IMG/VR virus record: IMGVR_UViG_3300037502_002077
Location: 1-41,911 of that record
Source: a virus
Direction: 5' to 3' (one strand)
Length of the DNA stretch: 41,911 bases
In this document: positions 7,868-38,266 of the stretch, piece after piece
Numbering within the stretch: position 1 is the first letter of the stretch
Layout of the letters: each line of letters opens with the position of its first letter
The notes under the pieces: model-generated
The model's input: only the letters and a program-made list of their open reading frames with translations
What the model was told of the DNA's origin: nothing
Database searches by the model: none
Made by a program: the position numbers and the translations under genes

Positions 7868-8220
7868 TGTTGTTTCTCCAGGTTGTCGAGTTCGGCTAGG
7901 AGGGCGCGGGCGTCAGCCACTATGTCTCCAATGTCGTCAGGACCGGGCTCGTCGTTCTGCCAATGCTCGTAGTCGGCAACAATCCGCTTTGCTATACCCC
8001 GCAAGCGGTCGTGGTAGTTTACCGCCTTGACAATGTGGCGAGCGTTGGCCTCGGCCTTTTCGATGCCCATGTCTGGCAGCTCATAGCAACCGTTGCACTG
8101 GATCATGTCGCGCCAGTCAACATGCTTGAGATCCGGGTCTTGGTGCATGGCGTCGATAAAGGCGGTCTGGCTGCGCTTGCTGATCCGGCCTGGCGTCCAT
8201 GGTGTTGGTGTTGGTCTCAC
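7864..8220 (-). CDS. hypothetical protein (118 aa, GTG start) with an EANARHIVKAVN motif common in small phage proteins
   Basis: ORF track. GTGA overlap with the upstream stop. Confidence 0.6.
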   Translation of the reverse strand: MRPTPTPWTPGRISKRSQTAFIDAMHQDPDLKHVDWRDMIQCNGCYELPDMGIEKAEANARHIVKAVNYHDRLRGIAKRIVADYEHWQNDEPGPDDIGDIVADARALLAELDNLEKQQ

Positions 8221-8429
8221 TTCACCACCTCCACTTCCCGCAACAACAGCCGGGCTTCCAGTTCGTTCATTTCGCCGTTCACCGCCAGCGTCAACTGCTC
8301 TACCAGCCGGGCGTGAAACTCCGCTGCGGTGCGGATGCCCAGGCTGCGGTTTCCGTTGCCGATGTCGTACAGCTGGTCTCGGGTGCGGTCGGTGATGCTG
8401 ACGTTTCGGTTTTTGGGTTGGTTGGTCAT
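8217..8429 (-). CDS. hypothetical protein (70 aa)
   Basis: Start refined to MTNQPKNRNVSITD, where the ATG at 8429 forms a TAATG overlap with the upstream stop. Confidence 0.55.
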   Translation of the reverse strand: MTNQPKNRNVSITDRTRDQLYDIGNGNRSLGIRTAAEFHARLVEQLTLAVNGEMNELEARLLLREVEVVK

Positions 8430-8587
8430 TACTTCCGGCCCTCCTTGCGTGCCAGCCACTTCTCCGCGCCCTTGCGAGTCTTGAAGTCCTTAGACTGCGT
8501 GAACGTCATGACGGTGAAGGTGCCGTTGCCGTTATCGAATACGCCTTTGCTGATCTGCTCGTTGTTGCCAAGGTCTAGAGTTTTCAT
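8429..8587 (-). CDS. hypothetical protein (52 aa)
   Basis: Start refined to MKTLDLGNNEQISKGVF, preceded by GGAGAGGGAAGGGAA. It is the first gene after the promoter at 8624-8651. Confidence 0.55.
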   Translation of the reverse strand: MKTLDLGNNEQISKGVFDNGNGTFTVMTFTQSKDFKTRKGAEKWLARKEGRK

Positions 8588-8623
8588 TTCCCTTCCCTCT
8601 CCGTTGTCGTCTCTATGGTTATC

Positions 8624-8651
8624 ATTATACACAGTCTGCATGGTGTGTAAA
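8624..8651 (-). promoter_or_regulatory. sigma70-like promoter (TTTACA N16 TATAAT) reading leftward
   Basis: On the minus strand, -35 TTTACA is the complement of 8646-8651 and -10 TATAAT is the complement of 8624-8629. The spacer is 16 nt, and the promoter lies about 35 nt upstream of the ATG at 8587. Confidence 0.5.
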
Positions 8652-8985: not shown

Positions 8986-11664
8986 GCCGAAAAAGGCAAG
9001 CGGGATGCGAACCGCTCTCGTTTTGACGCCAGCAAACCGAACAGCGTACTCCGTAGACGTTGCGCCCTCGATTCTTCCAAGAATCCGACGCCATCCAGCA
9101 CCCCAAGGCGTATCCCTGAGCAACTTTTCCAGTTCCGCATGCTTGTTTGAGACGAGTAAAAACGATCCATCAACGGCCAATCCGTAGCGCTTCAGCACGT
9201 CGTTTGCGTCCGCTGCCATGATGCCCCCGATATGCTCCTGACCACTGGCAGCGTCGACAACCTCGCCGATAGACCGACTGAGCTGGCCGCGCTCAGACTC
9301 AAATCGGATCTGACTTTGCAGAATGCGCTGCAAGCATGACTCCTCGTCGCTGACTTGCTCCTGCTCCTTGGCGTCTGAGAAATCCATGCGCTTCACCCAC
9401 TCCCTGGCGTCTTCCAGCGCGATCTCGTCGCTTCGGTAGTAAGCACAAGCGCCCGCAATAAGAGTGCCGACCTGATCCCCGATACGTTGGCTACCCAGAG
9501 TCTCAGCAACCGCCCTGGAGAAGGTTTTAGCGTTCTTCCGTATGGCAGGCATCAAATGGTAGGCGCGGGCACGCAGAGAGGCGCACATAGCGTCAGACAA
9601 GGTGTTGTCTACGCGCTTACTGAACGCGTCCCACCGTTCGGCTTCTTCGGGGTTCTTGTCTGGGCTGGCCAGAGACAGAACAGAAAACCGGCTTTCGTCC
9701 GCCGCTTGGGATAGCGAGACGTTGACTGACCCCAGCAGAAACATGGATCGCATGCGGAAGGCCATCCCATGACCGCTTACCGTGCCCTTGATGATCTCTG
9801 CCGTTGAGTCGCTTGAGGATTGGCGCGCTAGCTCAATCACCGTCTGCATGCGGTGCTGGCTGCGGTGGTCTTCGCTCTCAGCCTCGTCAAACACGATAGG
9901 TCGGGCGTCCTGCTTCAGCTTCTGGCGAATGCCGGCCTCCGTGGTGCTCCCCTGCACCATCAGAGCAGACGGGCCTAGCAGCGGCTGCACCATGTGGTCC
10001 TGAATCCACGACTTGCCCGCCCCTCGCTGTGCTGTGATCCAGACGTGAGGCCGCCAAGAAAGCGCCCCGCAGATCGGGGCCAGAAGGCACCAGCCGGCCA
10101 GCATTTGGGCGTAAACCGGCTTGTGCCAGTTCAGGTTCTCGAACATCTCAGCAATCCCGGCAGCGGTGTTGTCGTCAGCCGGTTTCGCGTCTGCCCCGTG
10201 CTCAAGCGCCGGCTGACGGGTGTAGATGTAGCTTGAGTCGTGTTCGGCAATCGTGCGCTGCTGTCCGTCAACCAGCAGTCTGTCGCCCAGGTGCAGCACA
10301 GCGCTGCCCTTGTCGTACCAAGCGCCACGACCACGCTCACGGTCAGAACTGTAGATCCCCCGGCGCTCACAGCCGCGCATGCAGTCGTTCGCCGCTGCAT
10401 GCCAGTCTGTGCCGCCTTGCTTACCCTTGGGGTAGGCCATCTCCCACCACTCAAGCGGTGCAAGGCTCAGCAGTTCGGCAGGGCTTGTGTGGCTTCCTCG
10501 CTTTATCTCGCTCACCTGTTCGGTGCCACGGGGCAGGTAGTAATAGGCGTTGCCGTTGTAACCCAGGAAGCGGAACGGAAGGCCGGCCGGCTGATGCTCA
10601 GGGGTTGGCTGTGGCTGTTCCGGAACAGGCTCCGCAGCCATGGCCTTGGCCTGTTCGGTTCGCTGGCGTTCCGGCTTGAGCCCCAAAAGTTCAGCCGCCG
10701 ACTTAACCGCCTTGCTCACGTCCCCCGCGTGCTCGTAATGGCAGAACAGGTCAAAGGCGTTAACTGGTTGGCCGTTTTCCTCGCTGCACAGCGGATCTGA
10801 TGCGTGGTGAATAAAGCATGACTGCTCATCGGGGAACAAGACAACACCCGGCAGGTTGGTGCCGCTGTGGGGGCTCAAATACCTAGATCTGCCCTTGCGA
10901 ACATAGCCATATTGCTCAAGAGTCAACCTTAGATCATGCGCATCTATGAACGATTGAATTACGTTTTGATCTTTCGGTTCCTGCTTTTTCTGTTTAGCTT
11001 TGGCCGATAACGGGGATTGATCTTCAAGCCACGGGCAAAAACCTACCAATTGTGGCTTAAAGTTGTCCCATGCCGTCCACATAGAAATCAGCCAGTCAGG
11101 AGGCTCCGGCCAAATACTTCCTTGTTTTGGCGGCTGAACTATCCATTTGTATGGCTCTTTCGTGTCTGGATGAATTGATGGGGGGAGCATATCGAATCGG
11201 CTTTTTCCATCACAAGATGCTCTAAGCTCAAAAACCGTGTAAGACTTTGATTTATCGCTTTCTTTTTTCCAGTTAAGCTTCGTGTACGGAAGGGCTTTAT
11301 CTTCAGGGACACGGAAAACTATCCTTCTACCCTTTGATGACCCCTGGATTGTTGGGTATTTCCAAAGATCATTAGGATCAATACCGAACTCGGCGAGGAT
11401 ATGCTGGAAAGATTCCTCACAGTCAATATCCAAGCTGCATAGACCTGAATCGCCAAGAGAGACCCCGATATTTTGATCGCTGTGATCAGAGAAGTATTGC
11501 TCTGCGATATCTGGATCAGGCATTGCGTGGCTACCCCAATCGTTCATCAGGGGGAGCTTGCTTGATGGCTTAATTGGGATTACGTGCATCCCGTACCTTT
11601 CTGTATATCTACGCGCGTACCACGAAATACTTTTCACAGAAGCCTCCCATTCTCGTTTGCCCAT
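8983..11664 (-). CDS. bifunctional primase-polymerase (AEP/PrimPol N-terminal domain) fused to a P-loop NTPase (helicase-like) domain
   Basis: 893 aa. AEP motifs are LCSLDIDCEE (DxD) and PPSIHPDT (sxH). Walker A is AQRGAGKSW and Walker B is IVFDEAE. Confidence 0.85.
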   Translation of the reverse strand: MGKREWEASVKSISWYARRYTERYGMHVIPIKPSSKLPLMNDWGSHAMPDPDIAEQYFSDHSDQNIGVSLGDSGLCSLDIDCEESFQHILAEFGIDPNDLWKYPTIQGSSKGRRIVFRVPEDKALPYTKLNWKKESDKSKSYTVFELRASCDGKSRFDMLPPSIHPDTKEPYKWIVQPPKQGSIWPEPPDWLISMWTAWDNFKPQLVGFCPWLEDQSPLSAKAKQKKQEPKDQNVIQSFIDAHDLRLTLEQYGYVRKGRSRYLSPHSGTNLPGVVLFPDEQSCFIHHASDPLCSEENGQPVNAFDLFCHYEHAGDVSKAVKSAAELLGLKPERQRTEQAKAMAAEPVPEQPQPTPEHQPAGLPFRFLGYNGNAYYYLPRGTEQVSEIKRGSHTSPAELLSLAPLEWWEMAYPKGKQGGTDWHAAANDCMRGCERRGIYSSDRERGRGAWYDKGSAVLHLGDRLLVDGQQRTIAEHDSSYIYTRQPALEHGADAKPADDNTAAGIAEMFENLNWHKPVYAQMLAGWCLLAPICGALSWRPHVWITAQRGAGKSWIQDHMVQPLLGPSALMVQGSTTEAGIRQKLKQDARPIVFDEAESEDHRSQHRMQTVIELARQSSSDSTAEIIKGTVSGHGMAFRMRSMFLLGSVNVSLSQAADESRFSVLSLASPDKNPEEAERWDAFSKRVDNTLSDAMCASLRARAYHLMPAIRKNAKTFSRAVAETLGSQRIGDQVGTLIAGACAYYRSDEIALEDAREWVKRMDFSDAKEQEQVSDEESCLQRILQSQIRFESERGQLSRSIGEVVDAASGQEHIGGIMAADANDVLKRYGLAVDGSFLLVSNKHAELEKLLRDTPWGAGWRRILGRIEGATSTEYAVRFAGVKTRAVRIPLAFFG

Positions 11665-12248
11665 TCAATGGGATCTTTAGCCGACTTCCGTAAGTTGCAC
11701 TCTACGCAAAGAATTTGCAGGTTTGTCGATTCGTTCGACCCTCCCCTTGAAAGAGGCACTATGTGATCAACGTGATATTTTTTGTTTGCCCCGCCGACCT
11801 TATCTTGACAACTTGCGCATCTGCCCCTTTGCATCCTAAGAGCCTTCTCTTCGCAAAAATCTAAACCAAGGCCATCGGTCCCGGCTTTCTGCGCCCGCCT
11901 CTTTCTTTCGTGCTTGCGCTTCACCTCCGGGTTCTCCTTGAAGTAATTTCTTGTTTTCTCTCTGAGTTGCTCAGAGTTTTTTTCATAGTAATCTCTTTGC
12001 CTAGACAAAACCCTTTCTCTGTTCCTTTGGTGATAATCCCTTAGCCTTGAAAGGTATTTCTCTCGGTTATTCTTTCTATATTTATCTAAATAAATGGCTT
12101 GGCAGTCGGTACACTTTCCGCAGCCGACGTATCTTTCTGCAATATGCCCGCGCAGGCACGGCTTTCCTGTAAAATACTTGGTCAGGCCAGCCTCTTTAGC
12201 ATCTTTTCGGGTGATAACTTTGGTGGTCATTCTGAATTCCTCAGTCAA
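11634..12248 (-). CDS. HNH endonuclease (homing-type), in a low-GC block
   Basis: 204 aa. C-terminal HNH core: YHVDHIVPLSRGGSNESTNLQILCVECNLRK. An N-terminal Cys cluster is present. Visibly AT-richer than its neighbours, and the 3' end overlaps the primase start by 31 nt. Confidence 0.88.
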   Translation of the reverse strand: MTEEFRMTTKVITRKDAKEAGLTKYFTGKPCLRGHIAERYVGCGKCTDCQAIYLDKYRKNNREKYLSRLRDYHQRNRERVLSRQRDYYEKNSEQLREKTRNYFKENPEVKRKHERKRRAQKAGTDGLGLDFCEEKALRMQRGRCASCQDKVGGANKKYHVDHIVPLSRGGSNESTNLQILCVECNLRKSAKDPIEWANENGRLL

Positions 12249-18256: not shown

Positions 18257-18404
18257 ACTTCAGCGCCTCCCGGTAAATCTTCGTCAGCGCCGTCTCATAT
18301 TCCACGGCCTTTTCTTGCCATTCGACGGCTTGCTGGGTCAGGTCTCTGACCATGGATTTCAGTTCGTACACTTCGGCTCTTAGTTGGCGTTCGGTTTGGG
18401 TCAT
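18246..18404 (-). CDS. small coiled-coil protein (52 aa), absent from the ORF track
   Basis: Own translation: MTQTERQLRAEVYELKSMVRDLTQQAVEWQEKAVEYETALTKIYREALKYAK. ATGA overlap with the methyltransferase stop. Confidence 0.45.
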   Translation of the reverse strand: MTQTERQLRAEVYELKSMVRDLTQQAVEWQEKAVEYETALTKIYREALKYAK

Positions 18405-19978
18405 TTTTCAGCCCTCATGATAACAACATCGACAGATGCCCCGCGGAACTGGTTTTCGTAGACCTTCGACCATGTGAGGCTCATCCCAGGGAGCACATCT
18501 TTGCCTTTGGCGCCGGCTGGAAGAATCGCCACCAGAACGCCATCGGGGCGAAGCATGGTTGCCGCGTGCTCGATGTGGGCTTGCCAGCGGCCCTGGCTGT
18601 ACGGCGGGTTCATCAAGATGCGGTCAAACTTTAGGTTTGGCAGGCTGCCCGACCATTGCAGAAAGTCTGCCTGGATGACCTCGTGACCTTTCTCGCGCAA
18701 CACAGCACAGTGCAGCGGGCTGACCTCCACACAATGCAAGGGCGCGTCTATAAGGTCGGCAATGCTGCCTGTTCCGGCGCTTGGCTCCAGGCAGTTGTGT
18801 GCGGGGCGGATCTCCGCCAGCTCCACCGCATCCCGGGCAATATGCTCAGGTGTCGGATAGAACTGGTGGCTTTTCTGGTCAGGGATAACGCCGGTGCACA
18901 CAATCTCCTTGATGACCGGGTCCGGGTCGTAGTCGAACCGATACCAGTTGTATGCGCTGGTGTTCTGCTTCACGCCACCGAGTAGCCCCAGCACCTGCTC
19001 AACCTCGGCGATTACATGCTTGTCCTTTTCGTGGGATTCGATGCGGACGGCGTTCGGAATCAATCGGCGGCTGCGCTCTGCCGTGTCATAGGCCCGGCCA
19101 AGGCGGTGAAGTACGTCCAGCACCGCGAACGGTAACGGTCTTTCCATCAAGGTAAATTCTTTTACCTTGCGCTTTGGCTTCTGCCGGAACCGTGACGGAA
19201 TGGCCGTCGGGTACAAGTGGTGCACGATCTCGTTCAAGCGCCACGCCATATCCGGGTGTACTTCCAGGTGGGCATTACCGTTCATGTAGCACCGAATCCG
19301 GAGAGCCCCGCCATCTACTGGTACCCACTCGCCTCGATGATTGGCCCGGCAAATCTCGACCATCCGATTGCTGGCGTTCCAGTCCGGCTCGTCCCGCCCC
19401 ATCAGCTTGGCGATAACTTGCCGCAGGTCGTTAATGTGGCCGGTCTGGCTCCGGGAATAGCTGCCCCAGTCATTGGTCACACCGGTCAGGATCATCCGCT
19501 TGCCGAAGCCTTCCGGTTGATTGGTAACGTGTGTCTTGCTCAGAGCCCGGAAAATGCCGTCTACCTTCTCGGCCAGAAAGTCCATGCGGGCAGCTAGTAA
19601 TTCGCGCAAGGTGGCCCGTACCGTGGACTCCTCAAAATCCGGCGTTTCCATTTTCTGGATCTGCTCGAACCATTCTTCCCGGCGCTTGCTGGGCATAAAG
19701 TCCAACACATCCGTAAGGTTCAGTGCTTGCTGCCAATAATGGGCATTCAGTGCGGCTATGCCCTGACCCAGATCAAAGCTAGGAGTTGAGCCTGCCCGAT
19801 GATCCCTGCGCCTGGCAGCATCCTCAAAGTACCCGACAACGCTTTTGAAGTCGTCGCCGGACACATAATCAACTACGCGCTCCATGCGATCACGCTCGGA
19901 GCGATAGCGCCCAACTAGGCCATCTACCATGTCTGTGCTGGCAGGCGCGAAAAACTGAGATTCGGCCAGGGCATTCAC
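18401..19978 (-). CDS. DNA methyltransferase: DUF4942-like N-terminal region plus a class I SAM-dependent N6-adenine (NPPY) methyltransferase domain
   Basis: 525 aa with a GTG start. SAM motif LEPSAGTGSI and catalytic motif LMNPPYS. No adjacent restriction endonuclease. Confidence 0.8.
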   Translation of the reverse strand: MNALAESQFFAPASTDMVDGLVGRYRSERDRMERVVDYVSGDDFKSVVGYFEDAARRRDHRAGSTPSFDLGQGIAALNAHYWQQALNLTDVLDFMPSKRREEWFEQIQKMETPDFEESTVRATLRELLAARMDFLAEKVDGIFRALSKTHVTNQPEGFGKRMILTGVTNDWGSYSRSQTGHINDLRQVIAKLMGRDEPDWNASNRMVEICRANHRGEWVPVDGGALRIRCYMNGNAHLEVHPDMAWRLNEIVHHLYPTAIPSRFRQKPKRKVKEFTLMERPLPFAVLDVLHRLGRAYDTAERSRRLIPNAVRIESHEKDKHVIAEVEQVLGLLGGVKQNTSAYNWYRFDYDPDPVIKEIVCTGVIPDQKSHQFYPTPEHIARDAVELAEIRPAHNCLEPSAGTGSIADLIDAPLHCVEVSPLHCAVLREKGHEVIQADFLQWSGSLPNLKFDRILMNPPYSQGRWQAHIEHAATMLRPDGVLVAILPAGAKGKDVLPGMSLTWSKVYENQFRGASVDVVIMRAEK

Positions 19979-23928: not shown

Positions 23929-24161
23929 GCCGCGTGCCATAAGCGCCTGAGCGATGACAACCGCTGCCTGCTGCCATGCGCGGCTAAGTCCACCGCAAGC
24001 CCATTGGTGTGCGCCGACCCCGGCACGCCACCCACCTTGGCGTTGTGTTTTTCGCACCGGTAGGCGGAGTTGATCACAAACGGGACGCCAGCCATGTGCC
24101 GGGCTGCCACGAGGCGGTTCAGCGCAAGTAAGGCTGAATTAGACTGCTCGTGGCCAGTCAT
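23925..24161 (-). CDS. peptidase M15A (M15_3)-like protein, short and apparently frameshifted or truncated at the C terminus
   Basis: The 78-aa ORF carries VINSAYRCEKHNAKVGGVPGSAHTNGLAVDL (SxYRxxxHNxxVGGxxxSxHxxGxAxD). The expected C-terminal block ...ARGLTRIGVAHEIHPD is encoded in the -1 frame from about 23970 downward. Confidence 0.6.
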   Translation of the reverse strand: MTGHEQSNSALLALNRLVAARHMAGVPFVINSAYRCEKHNAKVGGVPGSAHTNGLAVDLAAHGSRQRLSSLRRLWHAA

Positions 24162-24166
24162 TATAG

Positions 24167-26179
24167 CTATAGATCAATATTGTTAAGATCAATATCCTCA
24201 ATACTGTAATTTGGCGGAGTAACGATTCTTACAACTTCGTTATCTGAATAACCAAAAGCCCTTATAATCATTTTTCCACCGTGCGAGGATATAGCTTCTG
24301 CTACCCCCGAATTGCTCGGATAAGAGGTATGGTAATCGTAATCCGATAGCGGTATCTTTACTCCTGACGTGTTTCCATTGAATTTTATCTGTCCAAATAT
24401 TTCTTGCGTCTGTCCTGTGGCGTTAATTGACACGCTACCTCTTTCAATTATTGCAACCATTGGACATTGTGCAGAAGAATATCCAGACCCCGGCGTGTCA
24501 ACCGTTATATCTACGATCTTTCCGCCCTCTATTACAGGAGTCAACGTGGCACCTGATCCAGAAGTCGATGATATCTCTGCTGTTGCTGAAGTGTACCCTA
24601 TTCCGGGATGTTCTACATAACACCCAACAATTTCTCCGGCTTTATTAACAGTAACCGTTGCTCTTGCTGGATACGTACTGCTGCCACTGATAGTCACGCG
24701 AGGATAAGATGAGTGGTTCGTTGAAGTGCCTACAAATCCGACACTGTTTATAACCACACCGCTTGCGTTGTGTATTTCAAATAAAGCACCTGCAAGGTCT
24801 TTATCTGGGTTTGCGTTAGTAGGCCCGCTGAGCGACCCTCCGTTAAAAACAACCCCTTTAACACCGCCTGCTAAAGGGTTATCTTTGTTACCCAGCACCA
24901 CCGGCTTGACTACGTTTTCCGTATACAGCGAGTTAAATGTCAGCGTGCCGACTAGAACGGAATCTTTATAATAAACACCAATCTTCCCGCCCTGGGCAGT
25001 AAAGTTTGTAAAAGTAGTGCCGTGGGAATTTCCATCTATGTATAGGTTAGCATCGCAAGAATTAGAAGTATAAATGTTATCAAAATGGCAAGCGTTGACT
25101 TCGTCTCCGATCTTGAAGCAATATCCGGAAATGTTTGTTCCGTTCGTTCTTATGTTTCTGAATGTTCCGGGGTAGCAATTATCAAACAACGCTCCGTGTG
25201 TAAATGTGCCAGAAAATCTAACAGAATCAATAAATGGCTCGCCACACAACCTTGCCTCCATGCCTAGGTAGCACCCATTAGCTCCACGGATGGAAATGCT
25301 TTCAATCCTGTTGTTTGTTGAAAACCCTGATTGAGCCCCTACGCGCAAGACTGGCCCAGAAGCAATGGCGTCCCCAAAAATAATTGAGTCTTTGCCATCT
25401 CCCAGAATGCAACCACCGGAATTTGTATACAAAGTTGATGTTATACGATACTCGCCGGACGGGAGATACAGAAGTTTGAACGAATCTATTACGCCTTGTA
25501 GGATCGCCGTATTGTCAAACGCCCCGTCTCCCTTTGCTCCGAACCATAGGGCGTTTACATAGCCCGAGTAAGATCGGACCCACGCACCAGATGCGCCTGT
25601 TGGATCGCTGGCCGGAGGCACAAACAAGCCGCTTTTTGGGTCACTTGATACTTTCGCGGAAAGGTCTGAGCTATCCCACAGAAACTCTCCCTCGCCGCCA
25701 TCACCAGTAGTTGTACGGCCCGTCATGTAGGCAACATCGCCAGCAAAGCGCCCCGACACGGATTTCAGTGCCTGTAAATTGCTAACCCTGCGGACACCTT
25801 GTCCTAACTCCTGCCTCAGCACCGCATCCCCAGCCGCCACAAACGCCCCGCCCTCCGGCAGCCCCGCGCCAGTGGTCGTATACGGCAATTCAGTGGAGCC
25901 GGACACGCGCCAGAACTCACCGGAGCTATCGCGCACAACTTGGTTGTACTGCGTGACCTCGATGCCGGCAGCGTAGTCGCCTGCGAATTGGTAGCCACTG
26001 GCGGCAATGAAGGCGGCAAACTCGTCTTCAATGCTCTGCCAGCTGCGCCGCGATTTTCCCAGCCGGTCGTTATACGCCGCCTGATCGCCGTTAACGAGGT
26101 TATCCAGGTTCTCCGCGTTGTCGTAAAGATCACGCGGATCGGTAGAACCAAGCGGGTTCCCGGTGCTGTATGTGGTCAT
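24167..26179 (-). CDS. tailspike / tail fiber with a pectate-lyase-like beta-helix (putative depolymerase)
   Basis: 670 aa. Conserved N-terminal anchor: NPLGSTDPRDLYDNAENLDNLVNG. Beta-helix entry motif: NALWFGAKGDGAFDNTAILQGVI. The C-terminal two-thirds is visibly AT-rich. Confidence 0.85.
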   Translation of the reverse strand: MTTYSTGNPLGSTDPRDLYDNAENLDNLVNGDQAAYNDRLGKSRRSWQSIEDEFAAFIAASGYQFAGDYAAGIEVTQYNQVVRDSSGEFWRVSGSTELPYTTTGAGLPEGGAFVAAGDAVLRQELGQGVRRVSNLQALKSVSGRFAGDVAYMTGRTTTGDGGEGEFLWDSSDLSAKVSSDPKSGLFVPPASDPTGASGAWVRSYSGYVNALWFGAKGDGAFDNTAILQGVIDSFKLLYLPSGEYRITSTLYTNSGGCILGDGKDSIIFGDAIASGPVLRVGAQSGFSTNNRIESISIRGANGCYLGMEARLCGEPFIDSVRFSGTFTHGALFDNCYPGTFRNIRTNGTNISGYCFKIGDEVNACHFDNIYTSNSCDANLYIDGNSHGTTFTNFTAQGGKIGVYYKDSVLVGTLTFNSLYTENVVKPVVLGNKDNPLAGGVKGVVFNGGSLSGPTNANPDKDLAGALFEIHNASGVVINSVGFVGTSTNHSSYPRVTISGSSTYPARATVTVNKAGEIVGCYVEHPGIGYTSATAEISSTSGSGATLTPVIEGGKIVDITVDTPGSGYSSAQCPMVAIIERGSVSINATGQTQEIFGQIKFNGNTSGVKIPLSDYDYHTSYPSNSGVAEAISSHGGKMIIRAFGYSDNEVVRIVTPPNYSIEDIDLNNIDL

Positions 26180-33473: not shown

Positions 33474-33551
33474 GATAAAATTCCTCCGTAACGGAAATAA
33501 CGTCATCACGACGTGTTATTGCATGCTATCACAGTATAACCGATACGGGGA

Positions 33552-33584
33552 TGGAAGCAAAAGAAAGCCCTCACGGGGAGGGCT
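33552..33584 (-). terminator. rho-independent terminator closing the cargo cassette
   Basis: On the minus strand, AGCCCTC-cccgt-GAGGGCT is followed by TTCTTTTGCTT. The stem includes the stop codon of the 49-aa gene. Confidence 0.7.
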
Positions 33585-33720
33585 TGGTGGATATCCTTAC
33601 GGCTTCTCTAATCCCCGCGCTCGCGTTGCCCTTGCCCAGCTTGCGGAGCGCTTCGTGGTCTTCTTCCGTGACGGTGTAGGTGCGTTTTTTGGTGTTGGTG
33701 GCGTAGGGGCGTTTAGTCAT
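33571..33720 (-). CDS. small ribbon-helix-helix-like protein (49 aa)
   Basis: Start refined to MTKRPYATNTKKRTYTVTEEDHEALRKLGKGNASAGIREAVR, which shows a basic N terminus followed by a beta-strand and two helices. 8-nt overlap with the IbrB-like gene. Confidence 0.5.
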   Translation of the reverse strand: MTKRPYATNTKKRTYTVTEEDHEALRKLGKGNASAGIREAVRISTKPSP

Positions 33721-34222
33721 TGTCTGGCTCCCATGCTTCGCTAAACTCTTCATCTTTAAAAAGTTCTGCCAAGCCGCTGATTTGTTTCAGCCTCAAAACT
33801 TCGTCTGCATCCATTCCAAGCTCTTTTGATATTTTTTCAGCCGACCAGTTTCTCCTTGATAGTTCAACTACTATCTCGCTCATGCTGTCTATTCGGTGCT
33901 TGCCTCTGGCCCTGTTATGCCTGATCGTAGATGCGATCCGATCGTTTCTGTCTTGCGATTCGGGGTTTACTACAACAACAGGCAAGTGAGTCAAGCCCAT
34001 TTCTTTGCCAACCAGGTGTCGGTGAAACCCATCAACGACTTCATAAATTCCGTCGTGTTTCCATGTCACAATTGGCTGAGTGTAACCGTCAGCCTCAATG
34101 CTTCGCCTCAAAAGCTCCATTTCGGGCTTTGCCACTGAGTTAGGGTTGTAGTCATTCGCAACCACCAATTCCGATTCAACCCACACTACATTGCTTACAG
34201 GGTGGCGATTTATCCAGTTCAT
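33713..34222 (-). CDS. ParB-like nuclease-domain protein (IbrB-like / DndB-like DGxHR motif)
   Basis: 169 aa. Segments: NDYNPNSV, GYTQPIVT and EVVDGFHRH (ParB/Srx box). ATGA overlap with the IbrA-like gene. Confidence 0.75.
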   Translation of the reverse strand: MNWINRHPVSNVVWVESELVVANDYNPNSVAKPEMELLRRSIEADGYTQPIVTWKHDGIYEVVDGFHRHLVGKEMGLTHLPVVVVNPESQDRNDRIASTIRHNRARGKHRIDSMSEIVVELSRRNWSAEKISKELGMDADEVLRLKQISGLAELFKDEEFSEAWEPDND

Positions 34223-35415
34223 AAACCATACCTATGTTTTTTGAGCCTTAAATAAGCCTCGTACGCTCCCGTTTTGTGCTGTGTGAAGCTCAAGCCCTTG
34301 CACCAATAATCGTTCCTGAGAAGTGTTTTACATATCCTTCTCCAGCTTGGTATTTTTTTACTGTTTTCCAGCTTAGGGTCTGCTTCGTCAGGTATTCCTT
34401 TTGGATATTCTTCATTCCACCAATCAAGAAAAGTGTTTATTTTTATCTGATAGTGATCTCTTGTTGCTTTTGGCATTGAATTGAGAAGCATTTTTGCAAA
34501 GCTTTGCCACGTATGTCCTTCTGGCTTTTTGACCTTGATCGTTCCGTTTATGTTTCCGGAGTCCTTTGCGTACAGCGCTCCGCTATTTGCCCCGTTTACC
34601 CTTGCGACGACTTTTGCCCAGGTCTCCGGCTCGATGATCTGGTAAAGCCACAATCCTTTTCTCTGATCATCTCCGTAAGGTTGGCAGATTCTCTGCTGAT
34701 GGATTGATAGCCCAGCCTGGTTCATTAGGTCGTATAGCCTGTTGTACGGCAACGCTGTCTTTGCGTGATAAATCCATATGTCTCGCGTGCGCCAATCGTA
34801 TATCGGATAAACATTAACGCACGTTCCGGATTTCCACGTTGTCCAAGGGTGTCCCTCAAATCGGCTGTATTGATTATTCGCTATCGCCCTGTACCTGTTA
34901 AGGCTTTCGTCGGTTCTTATGCCAACAAGCGTGGCCATAAGGTCTCCACCGGCCAGCCATTCTGAGTACTTGTCGACAAAATCTTCAAACTCCATGCCCT
35001 TACTGAACCAATGCGGGGCGTCATTTTCTGTTATTGCCTTGCCAGGCATATCTCTGACCCATCGGTCCTTTTGGTTTTGGTCCCAGCAAATCCATTGTGG
35101 CTCGTAAGCGCTGACTGCGTTTCTTAGGCTTAGTGGTAAACAGATCCAGTGAAATTCACAGCAGTCACTGTACTGCCGACGCAGACTCTCGATATGATCA
35201 ATTGTCAGCCTGTACTGCGCCTCCAAATCCACAACCATAACAATGATGCTGCGCCCATGAGCCCTTGCCGCCTCGGCTGCCAAATGGAGCATCACAGTTG
35301 AGTCCTTGCCGCCAGAAACCGACACCATTACCTTCGGAAAGTTTTTCATTACATAAGATATTCTAAACCTTGCTGCATCAAGCACATTTACGCCGATTGG
35401 GTTTTTTGAAGCCAT
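34219..35415 (-). CDS. PAPS-reductase-family PP-loop ATP pyrophosphatase with a DUF3440-like C-terminal region (IbrA-like)
   Basis: 398 aa. PP-loop VSVSGGKDSTVML. GIRTDESLNRY. The long C-terminal extension is typical of IbrA. AGGAGG lies 8 nt before the ATG. Confidence 0.8.
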   Translation of the reverse strand: MASKNPIGVNVLDAARFRISYVMKNFPKVMVSVSGGKDSTVMLHLAAEAARAHGRSIIVMVVDLEAQYRLTIDHIESLRRQYSDCCEFHWICLPLSLRNAVSAYEPQWICWDQNQKDRWVRDMPGKAITENDAPHWFSKGMEFEDFVDKYSEWLAGGDLMATLVGIRTDESLNRYRAIANNQYSRFEGHPWTTWKSGTCVNVYPIYDWRTRDIWIYHAKTALPYNRLYDLMNQAGLSIHQQRICQPYGDDQRKGLWLYQIIEPETWAKVVARVNGANSGALYAKDSGNINGTIKVKKPEGHTWQSFAKMLLNSMPKATRDHYQIKINTFLDWWNEEYPKGIPDEADPKLENSKKIPSWRRICKTLLRNDYWCKGLSFTQHKTGAYEAYLRLKKHRYGL

Positions 35416-35786
35416 TCCACGGCCTCCTGTTTTGTTAGCTTTGTCATTTCTCCATTATCAAAAACAAAAAAGAACCTTTCAGATGATCGCCAGCTAGTTC
35501 TCCTTTTAACCTCATAAAGTACACCCGAATCAACCACGAATCTTAGATAGATCCCACGGTTGCCACTTCCGCTGCTCTTTGCCAAATCTTTTTTTCCATG
35601 CAAAAACTCCCTGACAAAACCATACTTCTTCGAAAGGCCGATTATTTTTGCCACCCATGGTTTTGTTGATGGCATGCTTAGATACTGCCCAGTTCCTGGA
35701 ATAAGATAATCCGAGATGGAAGACCAAAGTTTGTTCTCCTGCTCGTTGGTCTGCCCTATGCACTCGCAAACAACAACATGCTTCAT
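35388..35786 (-). CDS. hypothetical protein (132 aa), cargo cassette gene 2
   Basis: ORF track. ATGA overlap upstream and a 28-nt overlap downstream. Low GC. Confidence 0.6.
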   Translation of the reverse strand: MKHVVVCECIGQTNEQENKLWSSISDYLIPGTGQYLSMPSTKPWVAKIIGLSKKYGFVREFLHGKKDLAKSSGSGNRGIYLRFVVDSGVLYEVKRRTSWRSSERFFFVFDNGEMTKLTKQEAVEWLQKTQSA

Positions 35787-36031
35787 ACGATAGTTGCCTC
35801 AATACCGTATTTTGAAACGTATTCATCCTTTTCTTTCTGCTCAGCAACGTTAACAAACGCAAGCCGCAAACTTTCTCTTTTTTGAGCAACAAATTGATCC
35901 TTTGCTTCTTCGCGTGTTTCTGGAACATCGTTGAAGAAACTTTCGGCCCGAGCAACGAAGCTGCTAAGCGGACGGTTGATAGCTTCATCAAGCTCAATTT
36001 GCGCTTTTTTGATATCGTTGATTGTATACAT
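35783..36031 (-). CDS. hypothetical protein (82 aa), cargo cassette gene 1
   Basis: ORF track. GGAGAG precedes the ATG. First gene after the promoter at 36071-36098. Confidence 0.6.
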   Translation of the reverse strand: MYTINDIKKAQIELDEAINRPLSSFVARAESFFNDVPETREEAKDQFVAQKRESLRLAFVNVAEQKEKDEYVSKYGIEATIV

Positions 36032-36070
36032 TTTGGCTCTCCGTCTCTGTGTTGTCTCTCTATGATTCTA

Positions 36071-36098
36071 ATTATACATACTTTCAGAGGGAGTGCAA
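36071..36098 (-). promoter_or_regulatory. strong sigma70-like promoter (TTGCAC N16 TATAAT) driving the cargo cassette
   Basis: On the minus strand, -35 is the complement of 36093-36098 and the perfect -10 TATAAT is the complement of 36071-36076. Confidence 0.6.
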
Positions 36099-36129
36099 GA
36101 ATATATTTACCTTTTTTCGATCAGGCATT

Positions 36130-36152
36130 AAAAACCCCGCAACAAGGCGGGG
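36130..36152 (-). terminator. rho-independent terminator after the DUF3168-like gene
   Basis: On the minus strand, CCCCGC-cttgtt-GCGGGG is followed by TTTTTAATG. Confidence 0.7.
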
Positions 36153-36200
36153 CTTAACAACAACGGAGCAGGGCGTCTCTCGACGGGCTGCAACTCAACC

Positions 36201-36581
36201 TTACTCCCTCTTCACCCAAAAATCAAAATCAAACCCATACCGATACAGCCCGGTATCCTCTTCGCGCTCTTCGTTCCCCCATCGGGTGATGTAGCCGTGC
36301 GGCTCCAGGGCATCCCGAAGCGCCTTCACGGCATCCTTGACGCTGGCAACTGACTGACCGTACACGTCAATCTGTAAGCTGTAAGAATCAATGTCAGGCG
36401 GGCAGTCCAGATAGTTCTCAGGCAGGCCGGTCACGACTTGCCACACGGCATAGGGCACAGCATAGGCTGTAGTTCCCGGTTGCGGGGCGAAGTCGAACGG
36501 GTAGAAGCGCACGGGGTTGGTGCCGAGGGCGGATTGTACGGCGGTGTTGGTTGAGACTAGGGGGAATAGGGGGATGTTCAT
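36201..36581 (-). CDS. tail completion / tail terminator protein (DUF3168-like)
   Basis: 126 aa. Its position follows the HK97 gp10-like gene. Segments RFYPFDFAPQ...AYAVPYAVWQVV... Confidence 0.6.
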   Translation of the reverse strand: MNIPLFPLVSTNTAVQSALGTNPVRFYPFDFAPQPGTTAYAVPYAVWQVVTGLPENYLDCPPDIDSYSLQIDVYGQSVASVKDAVKALRDALEPHGYITRWGNEEREEDTGLYRYGFDFDFWVKRE

Positions 36582-37075
36582 TTTGCCGCCTTCTTCTTGG
36601 CGCGCCTTAGAGCTCGGTCCAATGCACGTGAATACTCGTTGATAAACGTATCAACCGCTTGCTGCCCTGCCTGATCCACCGCCGGGCGCATGAATGGCTG
36701 TGCGGCATGATTGGAGTTGCCGAACTCCTGTTGCCGGAAGGCTTGCCGAGTATCGCCGCCGGGCAGCCCAGAAAAGGCGCTGGCGGGCTTGTTACCACCG
36801 GCCCCGCCCATGACACCAATGCGGAAGCCGAGTCGCCCGGTACGCTTAAACAGCCTGCCATTCCAGCGCTCGACAATGTTTTTCTCGATACTCTCGGCAG
36901 TCTTCGGGTCGTCAATCTTGGCCGCATTGGCCTTGGCTTGATCGCGTATCACCTGAGCAGCGCGCCGCAACGCAAACCGCCCGCCCTTGTACTTGATATC
37001 ATCGGTCACGGTGTCCAGCTTGCCGAGCAGTTCGGGCAAGCCTTCCATGGTGTAGGTGATGCCGTCAGTTGCCAT
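36578..37075 (-). CDS. HK97 gp10-family head-tail joining protein
   Basis: Start refined to MATDGITYTMEGLPELLGKL. QEFGNSNHAAQPFMRPA is the family signature. Confidence 0.8.
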   Translation of the reverse strand: MATDGITYTMEGLPELLGKLDTVTDDIKYKGGRFALRRAAQVIRDQAKANAAKIDDPKTAESIEKNIVERWNGRLFKRTGRLGFRIGVMGGAGGNKPASAFSGLPGGDTRQAFRQQEFGNSNHAAQPFMRPAVDQAGQQAVDTFINEYSRALDRALRRAKKKAAK

Positions 37076-37670
37076 AATCCGGAACCCAATCAGCCTTAAC
37101 GTCTTGCGGTCTGGGCTTGCCGTGGAAGCACACAACTGCTGCATCCTCCGGCAATCCATGCTTACAGTGTACCTTATAGCTTACCACCTTGCCCGGCGCT
37201 ATGTCTTGCCAGCGTTGCGGCTCCCAGCAATCCGCGAAAAACGCCTGATCGCCGATGCGGCCACGAGTCGCGGGGCGCTTCATATACGCCTCTGGGTTCG
37301 TGATCCACCTATCCCATACAGCGGCCTTGTCGGCCTGGGAGATGTGCATAAACCCGCTGGCGGGATGCTCCGGCCAGTAGAAGTCGGAAAGCATGGTGGT
37401 TTTGCCGTTGGCCGCCTTGATCAGCGGGGCAAGGTCGCCGGGTACTACGGTGTCCAGGTCCAAGTACAGCAGGTCGCCTTTAATGTCAGGGCGGCACAGT
37501 TCTATTTTAGACCACCATCCGGGCCAGTTTTGGGTTAGCGGGATGGTTTCGACTCCGGGCACGGCGGTATCGGACAGGCACACAAGGCCCGGCACCTGGC
37601 TGGCCAGTACCTGAACATGGCGTGGGGTGAAGTCGCCGCCGGAGCGGAGGACGCAGATTATCTTGACCAT
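37065..37670 (-). CDS. putative glycosyltransferase (GT-A-like, DxD motif)
   Basis: Begins MVKIICVLRSGGDF and carries LLYLDLDTVVPGD (DxD). It resembles the small glycosyltransferases found in phage structural operons. Confidence 0.6.
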   Translation of the reverse strand: MVKIICVLRSGGDFTPRHVQVLASQVPGLVCLSDTAVPGVETIPLTQNWPGWWSKIELCRPDIKGDLLYLDLDTVVPGDLAPLIKAANGKTTMLSDFYWPEHPASGFMHISQADKAAVWDRWITNPEAYMKRPATRGRIGDQAFFADCWEPQRWQDIAPGKVVSYKVHCKHGLPEDAAVVCFHGKPRPQDVKADWVPDYGN

Positions 37671-38266
37671 ATCACGTTCCACTCATCTGCCGGGGCCGGG
37701 GCGTACCCCAGTGGTTTCAGGATAGCCGCCTGATCCTGCAAAGCCACATCGGTCAGGGCTTCGGTTATAATCAGCGGGGAGCACCTGCGGATGGTGGCTA
37801 GGGCGCCACGTAGAACAGCACACTCGTGCCCCTCTACGTCGATCTTAATGGCGGTTACGTTGCCGAAGTCGAATCCGTCAACCGTTGCCAGCACTGTGTC
37901 GGTGCCTTCGGTGATCTTGCCGCCACTGGTTAGCCGGGTTGATTTGCTCAGGGCCATGGATGCGCGGCCTTCATGGTCAGACAGTGCGATGAGGTAGGGC
38001 GCGACGGGCAGTTGGTTGACCTCGATGTTCTGTTGCAACCGCTCATATACTGCGGGGTTCGGCTCAAACGCATACGCATCAGCCCCGGCCTTAGCCGCCA
38101 CAAGCGCATACAGGCCCGTATACGCGCCAATGTCCAGCGCCGTGCCGTGGGTGCAGGCTGCCTGCCAAGCGGCGATAGACTCAGCTTCAAACGGCTTGCC
38201 GGTCTGCTTTTGGTGGCGAATGACCATATCGCCATCTGGGTTTAGGTGGATGCCGTGGATTATCAT
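37658..38266 (-). CDS. FkbM-family SAM-dependent methyltransferase
   Basis: 202 aa. Segments: ALDIGAYTGLYAL, AFEPNP, ALSDHEG, IKIDVEGHECAVLRG. Confidence 0.8.
   Translation of the reverse strand: MIIHGIHLNPDGDMVIRHQKQTGKPFEAESIAAWQAACTHGTALDIGAYTGLYALVAAKAGADAYAFEPNPAVYERLQQNIEVNQLPVAPYLIALSDHEGRASMALSKSTRLTSGGKITEGTDTVLATVDGFDFGNVTAIKIDVEGHECAVLRGALATIRRCSPLIITEALTDVALQDQAAILKPLGYAPAPADEWNVIWSR

Follow-up and report, generated by a model that had tools for sequence, protein, structure and literature searches.

How does a pair of ibrA/ibrB-type genes come to lie inside the tail operon of a phage, which of the neighbouring genes belong with it, and what might it do there? The question is raised by IMG/VR virus record IMGVR_UViG_3300037502_002077, which was analysed over its whole length of 41,911 nt (the window). 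An earlier note, made from the letters alone, had described a single low-GC cassette of five genes, with a promoter and terminators of its own, between the tail-completion gene and the major tail gene. The five co-directional open reading frames (ORFs) were found exactly where that note had placed them, with the same sizes (82, 132, 398, 169 and 49 aa) and overlaps: ATGA between the 82- and 132-aa ORFs and between the 398- and 169-aa ORFs (34219-34222), 28 nt between the 132- and 398-aa ORFs, and 8 nt between the last two (Table 1). For the 49-aa ORF the JGI gene call was used; the ORF list gives 60 aa from an upstream ATG. Comparison with related phages showed that four of these genes, p82, p132, ibrA and ibrB, are a foreign insertion at a hot spot. 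The fifth, together with the promoter and leader, was shown at the level of sequence to be part of a phage-resident, reusable frame for variable cargo.

Table 1. Features of the tail-operon locus and of the second frame copy, in window positions
Feature	Position	Strand	Remarks
Tail terminator gene	36201-36581	minus	PF11367, 8e-13; phrog_78
Upstream intrinsic terminator	36130-36152	minus	GCCCCGC-CTTGTT-GCGGGG + T5; free energy -15.1 kcal/mol, z -3.5; left insertion junction
Predicted sigma-70-type promoter	36071-36098	minus	TTGCAC at 36098-36093, 16-nt spacer, TATAAT at 36076-36071
Conserved purine/CA-rich 5' leader	36032-36070	minus	TAGAATCATAGAGAGACAACACAGAGACGGAGAGCCAAA, with Shine-Dalgarno sequence; CAT.AGA.A...CA invariant in 9 instances
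p82	35783-36031	minus	82 aa; low-GC cargo; coupled to p132 via ATGA overlap
p132	35388-35786	minus	132 aa; 28-nt overlap with ibrA; large uncharacterised family
IbrA-type enzyme	34219-35415	minus	398 aa; N-terminal phosphoadenosine phosphosulfate (PAPS)-reductase/PP-loop domain, C-terminal DUF3440
IbrB-type protein	33713-34222	minus	169 aa; N-terminal ParB/Srx domain, then helix-turn-helix (HTH)-like C-terminal part
Small DNA-binding-type, ribbon-helix-helix (RHH)-like protein	33571-33720	minus	49 aa; last gene of the operon; resident frame, not cargo
Downstream terminator	33555-33585	minus	AAGCCCTC-CCCGT-GAGGGCTT + T-rich tail TCTTTTGCTT; free energy -12.7 kcal/mol, z -3.5; right junction
Candidate backbone promoter of the major tail gene	33533-33560	minus	TTGCTT-N16-TATACT, read from sequence
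Major tail tube gene	32988-33470/33509	minus	PF16460, 3e-69
Second frame copy	8217-8650	minus	TTTACA-N16-TATAAT; conserved leader CATAGAGAC; 52-aa DUF1391 gene; 70-aa regulator paralogue

The insertion and its resident frame

The placement of the insertion was judged from 130 related loci, of which 127 allowed both flanking genes to be identified. About 110 of these 127 have only 19-125 nt between the tail terminator and major tail genes, as against about 2.7 kb in this phage. The three closest relatives, L081, L082 and L083, were used to define the junctions. In L083, window position 36131 is joined straight to 33570, which identifies this relative as an empty site; it keeps one hairpin, followed by TTGCAC-N16-TATACT and then the major tail gene. 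At the same junction, L082 (4595-5874) encodes a regulator of the Rha family (PF09669) and a protein of the Mom family (PF25680, 1.4e-30). L081, the closest of the three, shares the promoter and leader down to window 36038, where the left recombination junction with this relative lies, and the 49-aa gene (92.6% nucleotide identity); between leader and 49-aa gene it has four or five small ORFs unrelated to the cargo seen here (L081 2825-3994; 51-121 aa, without family matches). A 75-aa ORF is also located after the regulator gene of L081. These junctions place the insertion between two operons: on one side is the terminator that closes the head/connector transcript, on the other a probable restart promoter of the major tail gene. 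The moron-style insertion proposed in the earlier note is supported by the empty site, by the other cargo in L081 and L082 and by the short gap in most relatives. The locus is a natural experiment: at one and the same nucleotide position, near-isogenic relatives have an empty site, Mom or other cargo. When the cassette and the surrounding 12 kb were compared by megablast with 50,697 phage records, no match was found.

Base composition separates the genes in the same way. The GC content of 33571-36130 is 45.8%, with 41.0% for p82, 42.9% for p132, 46.4% for ibrA and 46.3% for ibrB; the 49-aa gene has 58.7% (74% at third codon positions), and the flanking tail genes have 57-61%. The description of the block as AT-rich holds for the four cargo genes but not for the last gene, which has backbone GC, and the notion of a single five-gene low-GC cassette had to be abandoned.

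Both flanking terminators were confirmed as hairpins, at 36152-36130 and 33585-33555. Terminator-like matches as a class are not enriched over this 5-kb region (5 found against 6.2 expected); the two junction hairpins stand out singly, by their stability and by their placement at the insertion junctions. L081 and L082 have the same upstream hairpin, as does the empty site of L083, and, judged from these relatives, it is ancestral to the phage backbone. The T-tract of the downstream terminator is, on the same kind of comparison, the ancestral one. The candidate promoter of the major tail gene is kept in the empty site of L083, in the form given above, and is absent from the consensus-scan calls.

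The predicted cassette promoter had been called near-consensus. TTGCAC-N16-TATAAT is present at the coordinates then reported, but its -35 hexamer agrees with TTGACA at only three of six positions, which is why a generic promoter scan missed it. The promoter was taken as real because promoter and leader are conserved as a whole in nine loci and because a second copy is present in the window. Despite its different cargo, L081 has nearly the same promoter and leader, a single base of the spacer being substituted.

Homologues of the 49-aa protein were found in 16 clusters. In P22-like and other phages they close short operons, usually just ahead of the terminase genes, and the ORFs upstream of them are mutually unrelated from operon to operon. 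The DNA ahead of these operons carries the same promoter and 5' leader, and nine instances from different phages could be aligned; a -35 T-TTG, GTATAAT and the leader motif CAT.AGA.A...CA are invariant among them. In one P22-like phage, a tRNA-Pro(TGG) gene is found immediately upstream of the conserved terminator-promoter-leader frame (L213 4449-4525). A strict promoter-leader pattern matched six stretches of IMG/VR, one being L081, already known; of the other five, L220 proved to be a genuine further instance and L219 a distant one, and three are chance matches in AT-rich phages.

The second frame copy of the window is built in the same manner. For its motif, found at 8607-8629, the number of matches expected by chance is 0.05, its 52-aa cargo matches DUF1391 (7.2e-26), and its 70-aa last protein is a paralogue of the 49-aa RHH-like protein (38% identity, E 4e-7). 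It stands directly downstream of the primase gene, within a local GC dip. The same regulator and promoter with different cargo, and with the regulator as last gene, were thus found in L081, in other phages and at 8217-8650.

Two earlier proposals fell with these results. The RHH-like protein is not a partner of IbrA/IbrB, since the GC content of its gene is that of the backbone and since L081, P22-like and other phages have the gene without an IbrA/IbrB pair; nor was the promoter imported with the cassette, since promoter, leader and regulator travel as a frame that recurs around other cargo. This frame could serve as a search handle for further phage accessory or anti-defence cargo.

The AlphaFold2 (AF2) model of the 49-aa protein (pLDDT 82.9) has an extended N-terminus and two helices with a GxGNAS turn between them, and is compatible with an RHH fold; the best RHH match of the model in Foldseek was FitA, with a TM score of 0.50 and an E-value of 8.9. 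The leader RNA is predicted to be unstructured (free energy -0.5 kcal/mol); an operator to which the small regulator binds may lie in the leader. An imperfect TCTCT..ATG / CAT..AGAGA symmetry could be seen in some instances of the promoter and leader only.

IbrA, IbrB and their third gene

The assignment of the two larger cargo proteins to IbrA and IbrB was upheld by family searches. IbrA matches PF01507 PAPS_reduct (2.8e-19) and PF11922 DUF3440 (5.2e-37), both above the gathering score, and phrog_2302 (2e-89); IbrB matches PF02195 ParB_N (2.1e-7, 31.4 bits against a cut-off of 26.3) and phrog_2159 (1.5e-64), and could be aligned to ParB (4umk) over residues 12-148, through the HTH region. The annotated proteins of Escherichia phage PhiR5_2, which served as reference in place of the original ECOR-9 sequences, are 46% (IbrA, over 399 aa) and 55% (IbrB, over 164 aa) identical. 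The PP-loop and ParB/Srx box that the earlier note had picked out are residues 34-39 of IbrA (SGGKDS) and 62-69 of IbrB (VVDGFHRH). Among 68 homologues of IbrA the PP-loop SxSGGKDS is invariant, and Cys110 and Cys244 are present in 93-94%; in IbrB, DGFHR and TIRHNRARG are invariant among homologues. No solved close relative was found for IbrA or IbrB.

A likeness to DndC/SspD and to DGQHR-type ParB proteins had also been claimed. It stands at the level of the superfamily, where it extends to BrxP, but not at that of the family: IbrA scores far under the cut-offs of curated CysH, CysD and DndC models, and its PADLOC matches are weak (BrxP 3.4e-8; DndC 1.4e-6, over a partial stretch; SspD 0.011).

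Homologues of IbrA were found in 224 GenBank phage records, across many phyla. IbrA and IbrB occur together in 74 of 80 loci, the remaining six being truncated contigs, and their genes are adjacent, co-directional and coupled by an ATGA overlap. In related IMG/VR loci the pair lies among DnaB, NinG and SNF2 genes. IbrA/IbrB is among the commonest accessory gene pairs of phages; its chemistry has never been established, none of the papers searched gives it a biochemical function, and records routinely assign it, wrongly, to sulfur metabolism. Two variants of the locus were noted: in L222 and L224 the IbrA and IbrB genes of a p132-IbrA-IbrB locus are separated by a gene for an acetyltransferase of GNAT type, with a weak Acetyltransf_7 match (L222 2565-2981; L224 1968-2360), and L064 and L065 have, upstream of IbrA, two adjacent IbrA-like ORFs (227 and 437 aa), possibly an ORF-calling artefact, beside a 278-aa protein that looked CRISPR RAMP-like by eye.

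The two genes upstream of ibrA had been regarded as its uncharacterised partners; a conserved partnership was borne out for p132 only. A word-indexed protein search with p132 returned only two close relatives, so an exhaustive search was used for the family count. At E<=1e-3 the count was 895 representative clusters, and 360 of these also passed E<=1e-10. E8, R59 and R77 are invariant in the family and a GSRG loop is conserved, and there is no conserved cysteine. No match was found for p132 in Pfam, NCBIfam, PADLOC or a PDB profile search, its PHROG match is weak and to a family of unknown function, and the matches of its AF2 model (pLDDT 96.9) in BFVD are all uncharacterised viral proteins. 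PF07410 Phage_Gp111 gave weak matches in 17 of 53 aligned family members (best E 1.1e-4), all under the gathering score, and none in p132 itself. Some family members (P0009, P0021, P0042, P0151 and others) have fused N- or C-terminal extensions of 60-230 aa without Pfam match; the extension of P0151 and a 319-aa ORF upstream of p132 in L062 have, by eye, a repeated 'W..(D/E)..K.W.VP'-like motif in common.

In all 15 other loci examined, which include all seven family members looked up as well as L001 (Chlorobiaceae phage CV-1-33), L016 and L062, a p132-family gene lies directly upstream of IbrA, usually overlapping the PAPS_reduct+DUF3440 gene, and a ParB-like gene follows wherever the contig continues. 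p132-IbrA-IbrB was thereby shown to be a strictly linked core. For p82, the sole homologue (62% identity) was found in L073, where it is also upstream of a p132 homologue and IbrA; it has no match in Pfam, NCBIfam, PHROG or PADLOC. Apart from L073, no homology was found among the genes upstream of p132-family genes, so that this slot is variable and p82 is not a general fourth component.

The place of p132 can be taken by another protein. Among 63 IMG/VR loci with IbrA homologues 44-61% identical, about 44 (within the series L008-L061) have directly upstream of IbrA an uncharacterised protein of about 121-155 aa, here termed c2, with a conserved H, WE, W.S and N..A..G, a partly conserved SCEHNLTN/ACC and no Pfam match. 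Homology between p132 and c2 was considered and rejected (hhalign probability 0.1%). Gene orders of partner-IbrA-IbrB and IbrB-partner-IbrA were both seen, and c2 looks like an alternative third subunit. Attempts to reconstitute IbrA/IbrB may have lacked a third subunit, for which p132 and c2 are candidates.

Possible roles of the cassette

A role in nucleic-acid modification or conflict is plausible for the cassette. The reading that we favour, which we place just short of probable, is that it is a moron in an acr-aca-like operon, encoding an ATP-dependent, DNA-targeted modification or counter-defence system. It is drawn from the Mom-family gene at the identical site in L082, from the position of IbrA/IbrB among DnaB, NinG and SNF2 genes elsewhere, and from the literature: Aca-regulated operons with Mom and PAPS reductases have been described, together with the RHH-type regulator Aca14 (PMC13551039, NAR 2026), the same paper states, citing Piel et al. 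2022, that Dnd is evaded with the help of a PAPS reductase from a phage, and ParB-like NTPases assist DNA-modifying enzymes, for example DpdB with DpdA (PMC12839542).

The steps may be pictured as follows. The genes p82-p132-ibrA-ibrB were most likely swapped into the cargo slot of the frame by recombination through the conserved leader on one side and the 5' part of the regulator gene on the other. IbrB, through its ParB/Srx NTP-binding domain and HTH, would bind DNA and position IbrA there, and IbrA would adenylate its target with ATP via the PP-loop, which is intact, like DndC and other PP-loop enzymes, and then modify the nucleic acid, most likely phage DNA. p132 would be an obligatory accessory subunit, concerned for instance with substrate or specificity; it is not expected to be a persulfide carrier, because it has no conserved cysteine. 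Modified progeny DNA would escape restriction-type host defences at the next infection, as with Mu Mom, and the small regulator would probably auto-repress the promoter, like Aca proteins in acr-aca operons. A more specific version, in which p132, IbrA and IbrB are a three-component, ATP-dependent machine for nucleic-acid modification, with p132 as an obligatory subunit that alternates with c2 and the whole as exchangeable counter-defence cargo in a widespread promoter-leader-RHH frame that is a landing pad ready for recombination, must be called doubtful.

Several points weigh against a modification or counter-defence system. No modification chemistry is known for any IbrA/IbrB protein, and the anti-Dnd PAPS reductase, which comes from a Vibrio phage, is not necessarily of the IbrA type. 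Among the five proteins of the cassette there is neither a sulfur-mobilising enzyme nor a DndD/DndE-like partner; IbrA reaches only 22.9 bits with the DndC model TIGR03183 (cut-off 290.4), and it is far below the SspD cut-off as well. The p132 fold has no PDB match (Foldseek best E 0.06, TM <=0.3) and gives no functional clue. As regards the regulator, the 49-aa protein had no significant RHH match in Foldseek, Pfam or PDB profile searches, and a search of the promoter region with a 6-nt seed found neither inverted nor direct repeats. The sequence being a metagenomic contig, host and life style are only inferred. Finally, the founding IbrA and IbrB are said, in work of Sandt, Hopper and Hill from 2002, to activate prophage eib genes, and to our knowledge this activation, not DNA modification, is the only experimental phenotype of IbrA/IbrB.

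That phenotype would be accounted for directly if IbrA/IbrB, with p132, were a gene-expression switch in which IbrB, binding or spreading on DNA like a ParB clamp, and an enzymatic step by IbrA relieve silencing or activate particular promoters of phage or host. The HTH-like C-terminal part of IbrB would suit such a role, as would the annotation 'co-activator of prophage gene expression' on homologues H4, H7 and H31 and the location of the pair beside the cro/antirepressor region in S. thermophilus phages. We nevertheless consider a switch unlikely: an invariant PP-loop and conserved cysteines favour catalysis over simple DNA binding, the pair is accessory and its place differs between phages (a replication module, the neighbourhood of the lysis genes or a tail operon), which is untypical for a core regulator, and modification of DNA could itself switch on silent genes as a side effect. 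It is also improbable that the cassette is a prophage-borne system of defence or superinfection exclusion that marks resident DNA or senses infection and acts on incoming phages, like Dnd, Ssp and type-4 BREX with their PAPS-reductase-like enzymes. A moron that lies in a structural operon often encodes defence, and the weak PADLOC matches to BrxP and DndC point the same way. A preprint proposes candidate defence operons that join a YejK-like nucleoid protein to a PAPS reductase, some with Arc and ParBc proteins; in the cassette, however, no nuclease, other effector or YejK-like gene was found. There was no integrase among the scanned ORFs, many ORFs being outside the scan, so that lysogeny is unproven, and the pair is also present in S. 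thermophilus CHPC phages, which are generally regarded as virulent dairy phages. The acr-aca-like frame and the Mom gene at the same site in L082 further speak for counter-defence rather than defence.

The label 'phosphoadenosine phosphosulfate reductase' in PHROG and in many GenBank records would suggest something else again, an auxiliary metabolic gene encoding a true PAPS reductase that boosts sulfate assimilation by the host, and a recent preprint reads prophage PAPS reductases in this way. For the present IbrA this is highly improbable. Its scores with CysH models are 35.9 bits (NF002537, cut-off 154) and 30.9 bits (TIGR02057, cut-off 254.2), the ECG[LI]H catalytic motif that is C-terminal in CysH is not found in its sequence, and it has a canonical ATP-type PP-loop, an extra DUF3440 domain and an obligatory coupling to a ParB-like protein and p132. 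A role in sulfur metabolism was rejected on account of these scores and of the ParB-like protein that always accompanies it.

The rest of the window and comparison with known systems

The phage is siphovirus-like and encodes terminase, portal, major head, tail, primase, helicase and DNA methyltransferase proteins; the relatives of its tail module are prophages of Halomonas, Pseudomonas, Alcanivorax and Enterobacterales. The methyltransferase gene is large (18401-19978, minus strand; phrog_6263, 2.4e-189), so that the phage already has at least one other DNA-modification function. The head-tail connector block contains, on the minus strand at 37065-38266, genes for a glycosyltransferase-like protein (phrog_1962, 9.6e-63) and an FkbM-type methyltransferase (PF05050; phrog_8156), perhaps a further accessory insertion among the structural genes. 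Other low-GC patches (43-48%) overlap an HNH endonuclease gene (patch 11001-12000; gene 11634-12248, PF01844) and the C-terminal part of a tail-fibre-like gene (patch 24001-25500; gene 24167-26179). Rfam and tRNA scans of the window found nothing.

Of the established DNA-modification systems, Dnd, Ssp and type-4 BREX resemble the cassette in combining a PP-loop enzyme (DndC, SspD, BrxP) with a ParB/Srx protein of the DGQHR type (DndB), with conserved cysteines; they differ from it in that none of the five cassette proteins matches DndA, DndD, DndE, SspB or SspC and in that DUF3440 is present here. The DpdA/DpdB system of 7-deazaguanine DNA modification also places a ParB-like NTPase beside a DNA-modifying enzyme, but its catalytic partner is a transglycosylase instead of a PP-loop enzyme, and homology is limited to the ParB fold. 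Mu Mom, which modifies adenine in DNA and protects against restriction, is likewise accessory among late genes, and a member of its family occupies the identical insertion point in L082; Mom is a GNAT-like single enzyme without relation in sequence or fold to IbrA/IbrB. The acr-aca operons, in particular those of Aca14, resemble the frame in having a conserved promoter, swappable cargo, a small DNA-binding-type regulator as last gene and more than one promoter per genome for the regulator family. The differences are that no known Acr is among the cargo here, that no inverted-repeat operator was found and that the 49-aa protein is at most compatible with an RHH fold.

The closest counterparts are the known IbrA/IbrB pairs, in the IbrAB island of E. 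coli ECOR-9, in PhiR5_2 and in the S. thermophilus CHPC phages, which have the same architecture, gene order and translational coupling. Gp111 (PF07410), a family without assigned function to which part of the p132 family is weakly similar, is itself an S. thermophilus phage protein, and IbrA/IbrB is also carried by S. thermophilus phages; a hidden Markov model of the p132 family found nothing in the two S. thermophilus loci. The pair of PhiR5_2 is without p132 and p82, whereas both stand upstream here, and insertion in a tail operon under the RHH-associated frame sets the present locus apart from the known pairs. The IbrA/IbrB pair itself is thus known, though biochemically unsolved, and the three-gene, frame-embedded arrangement is new.

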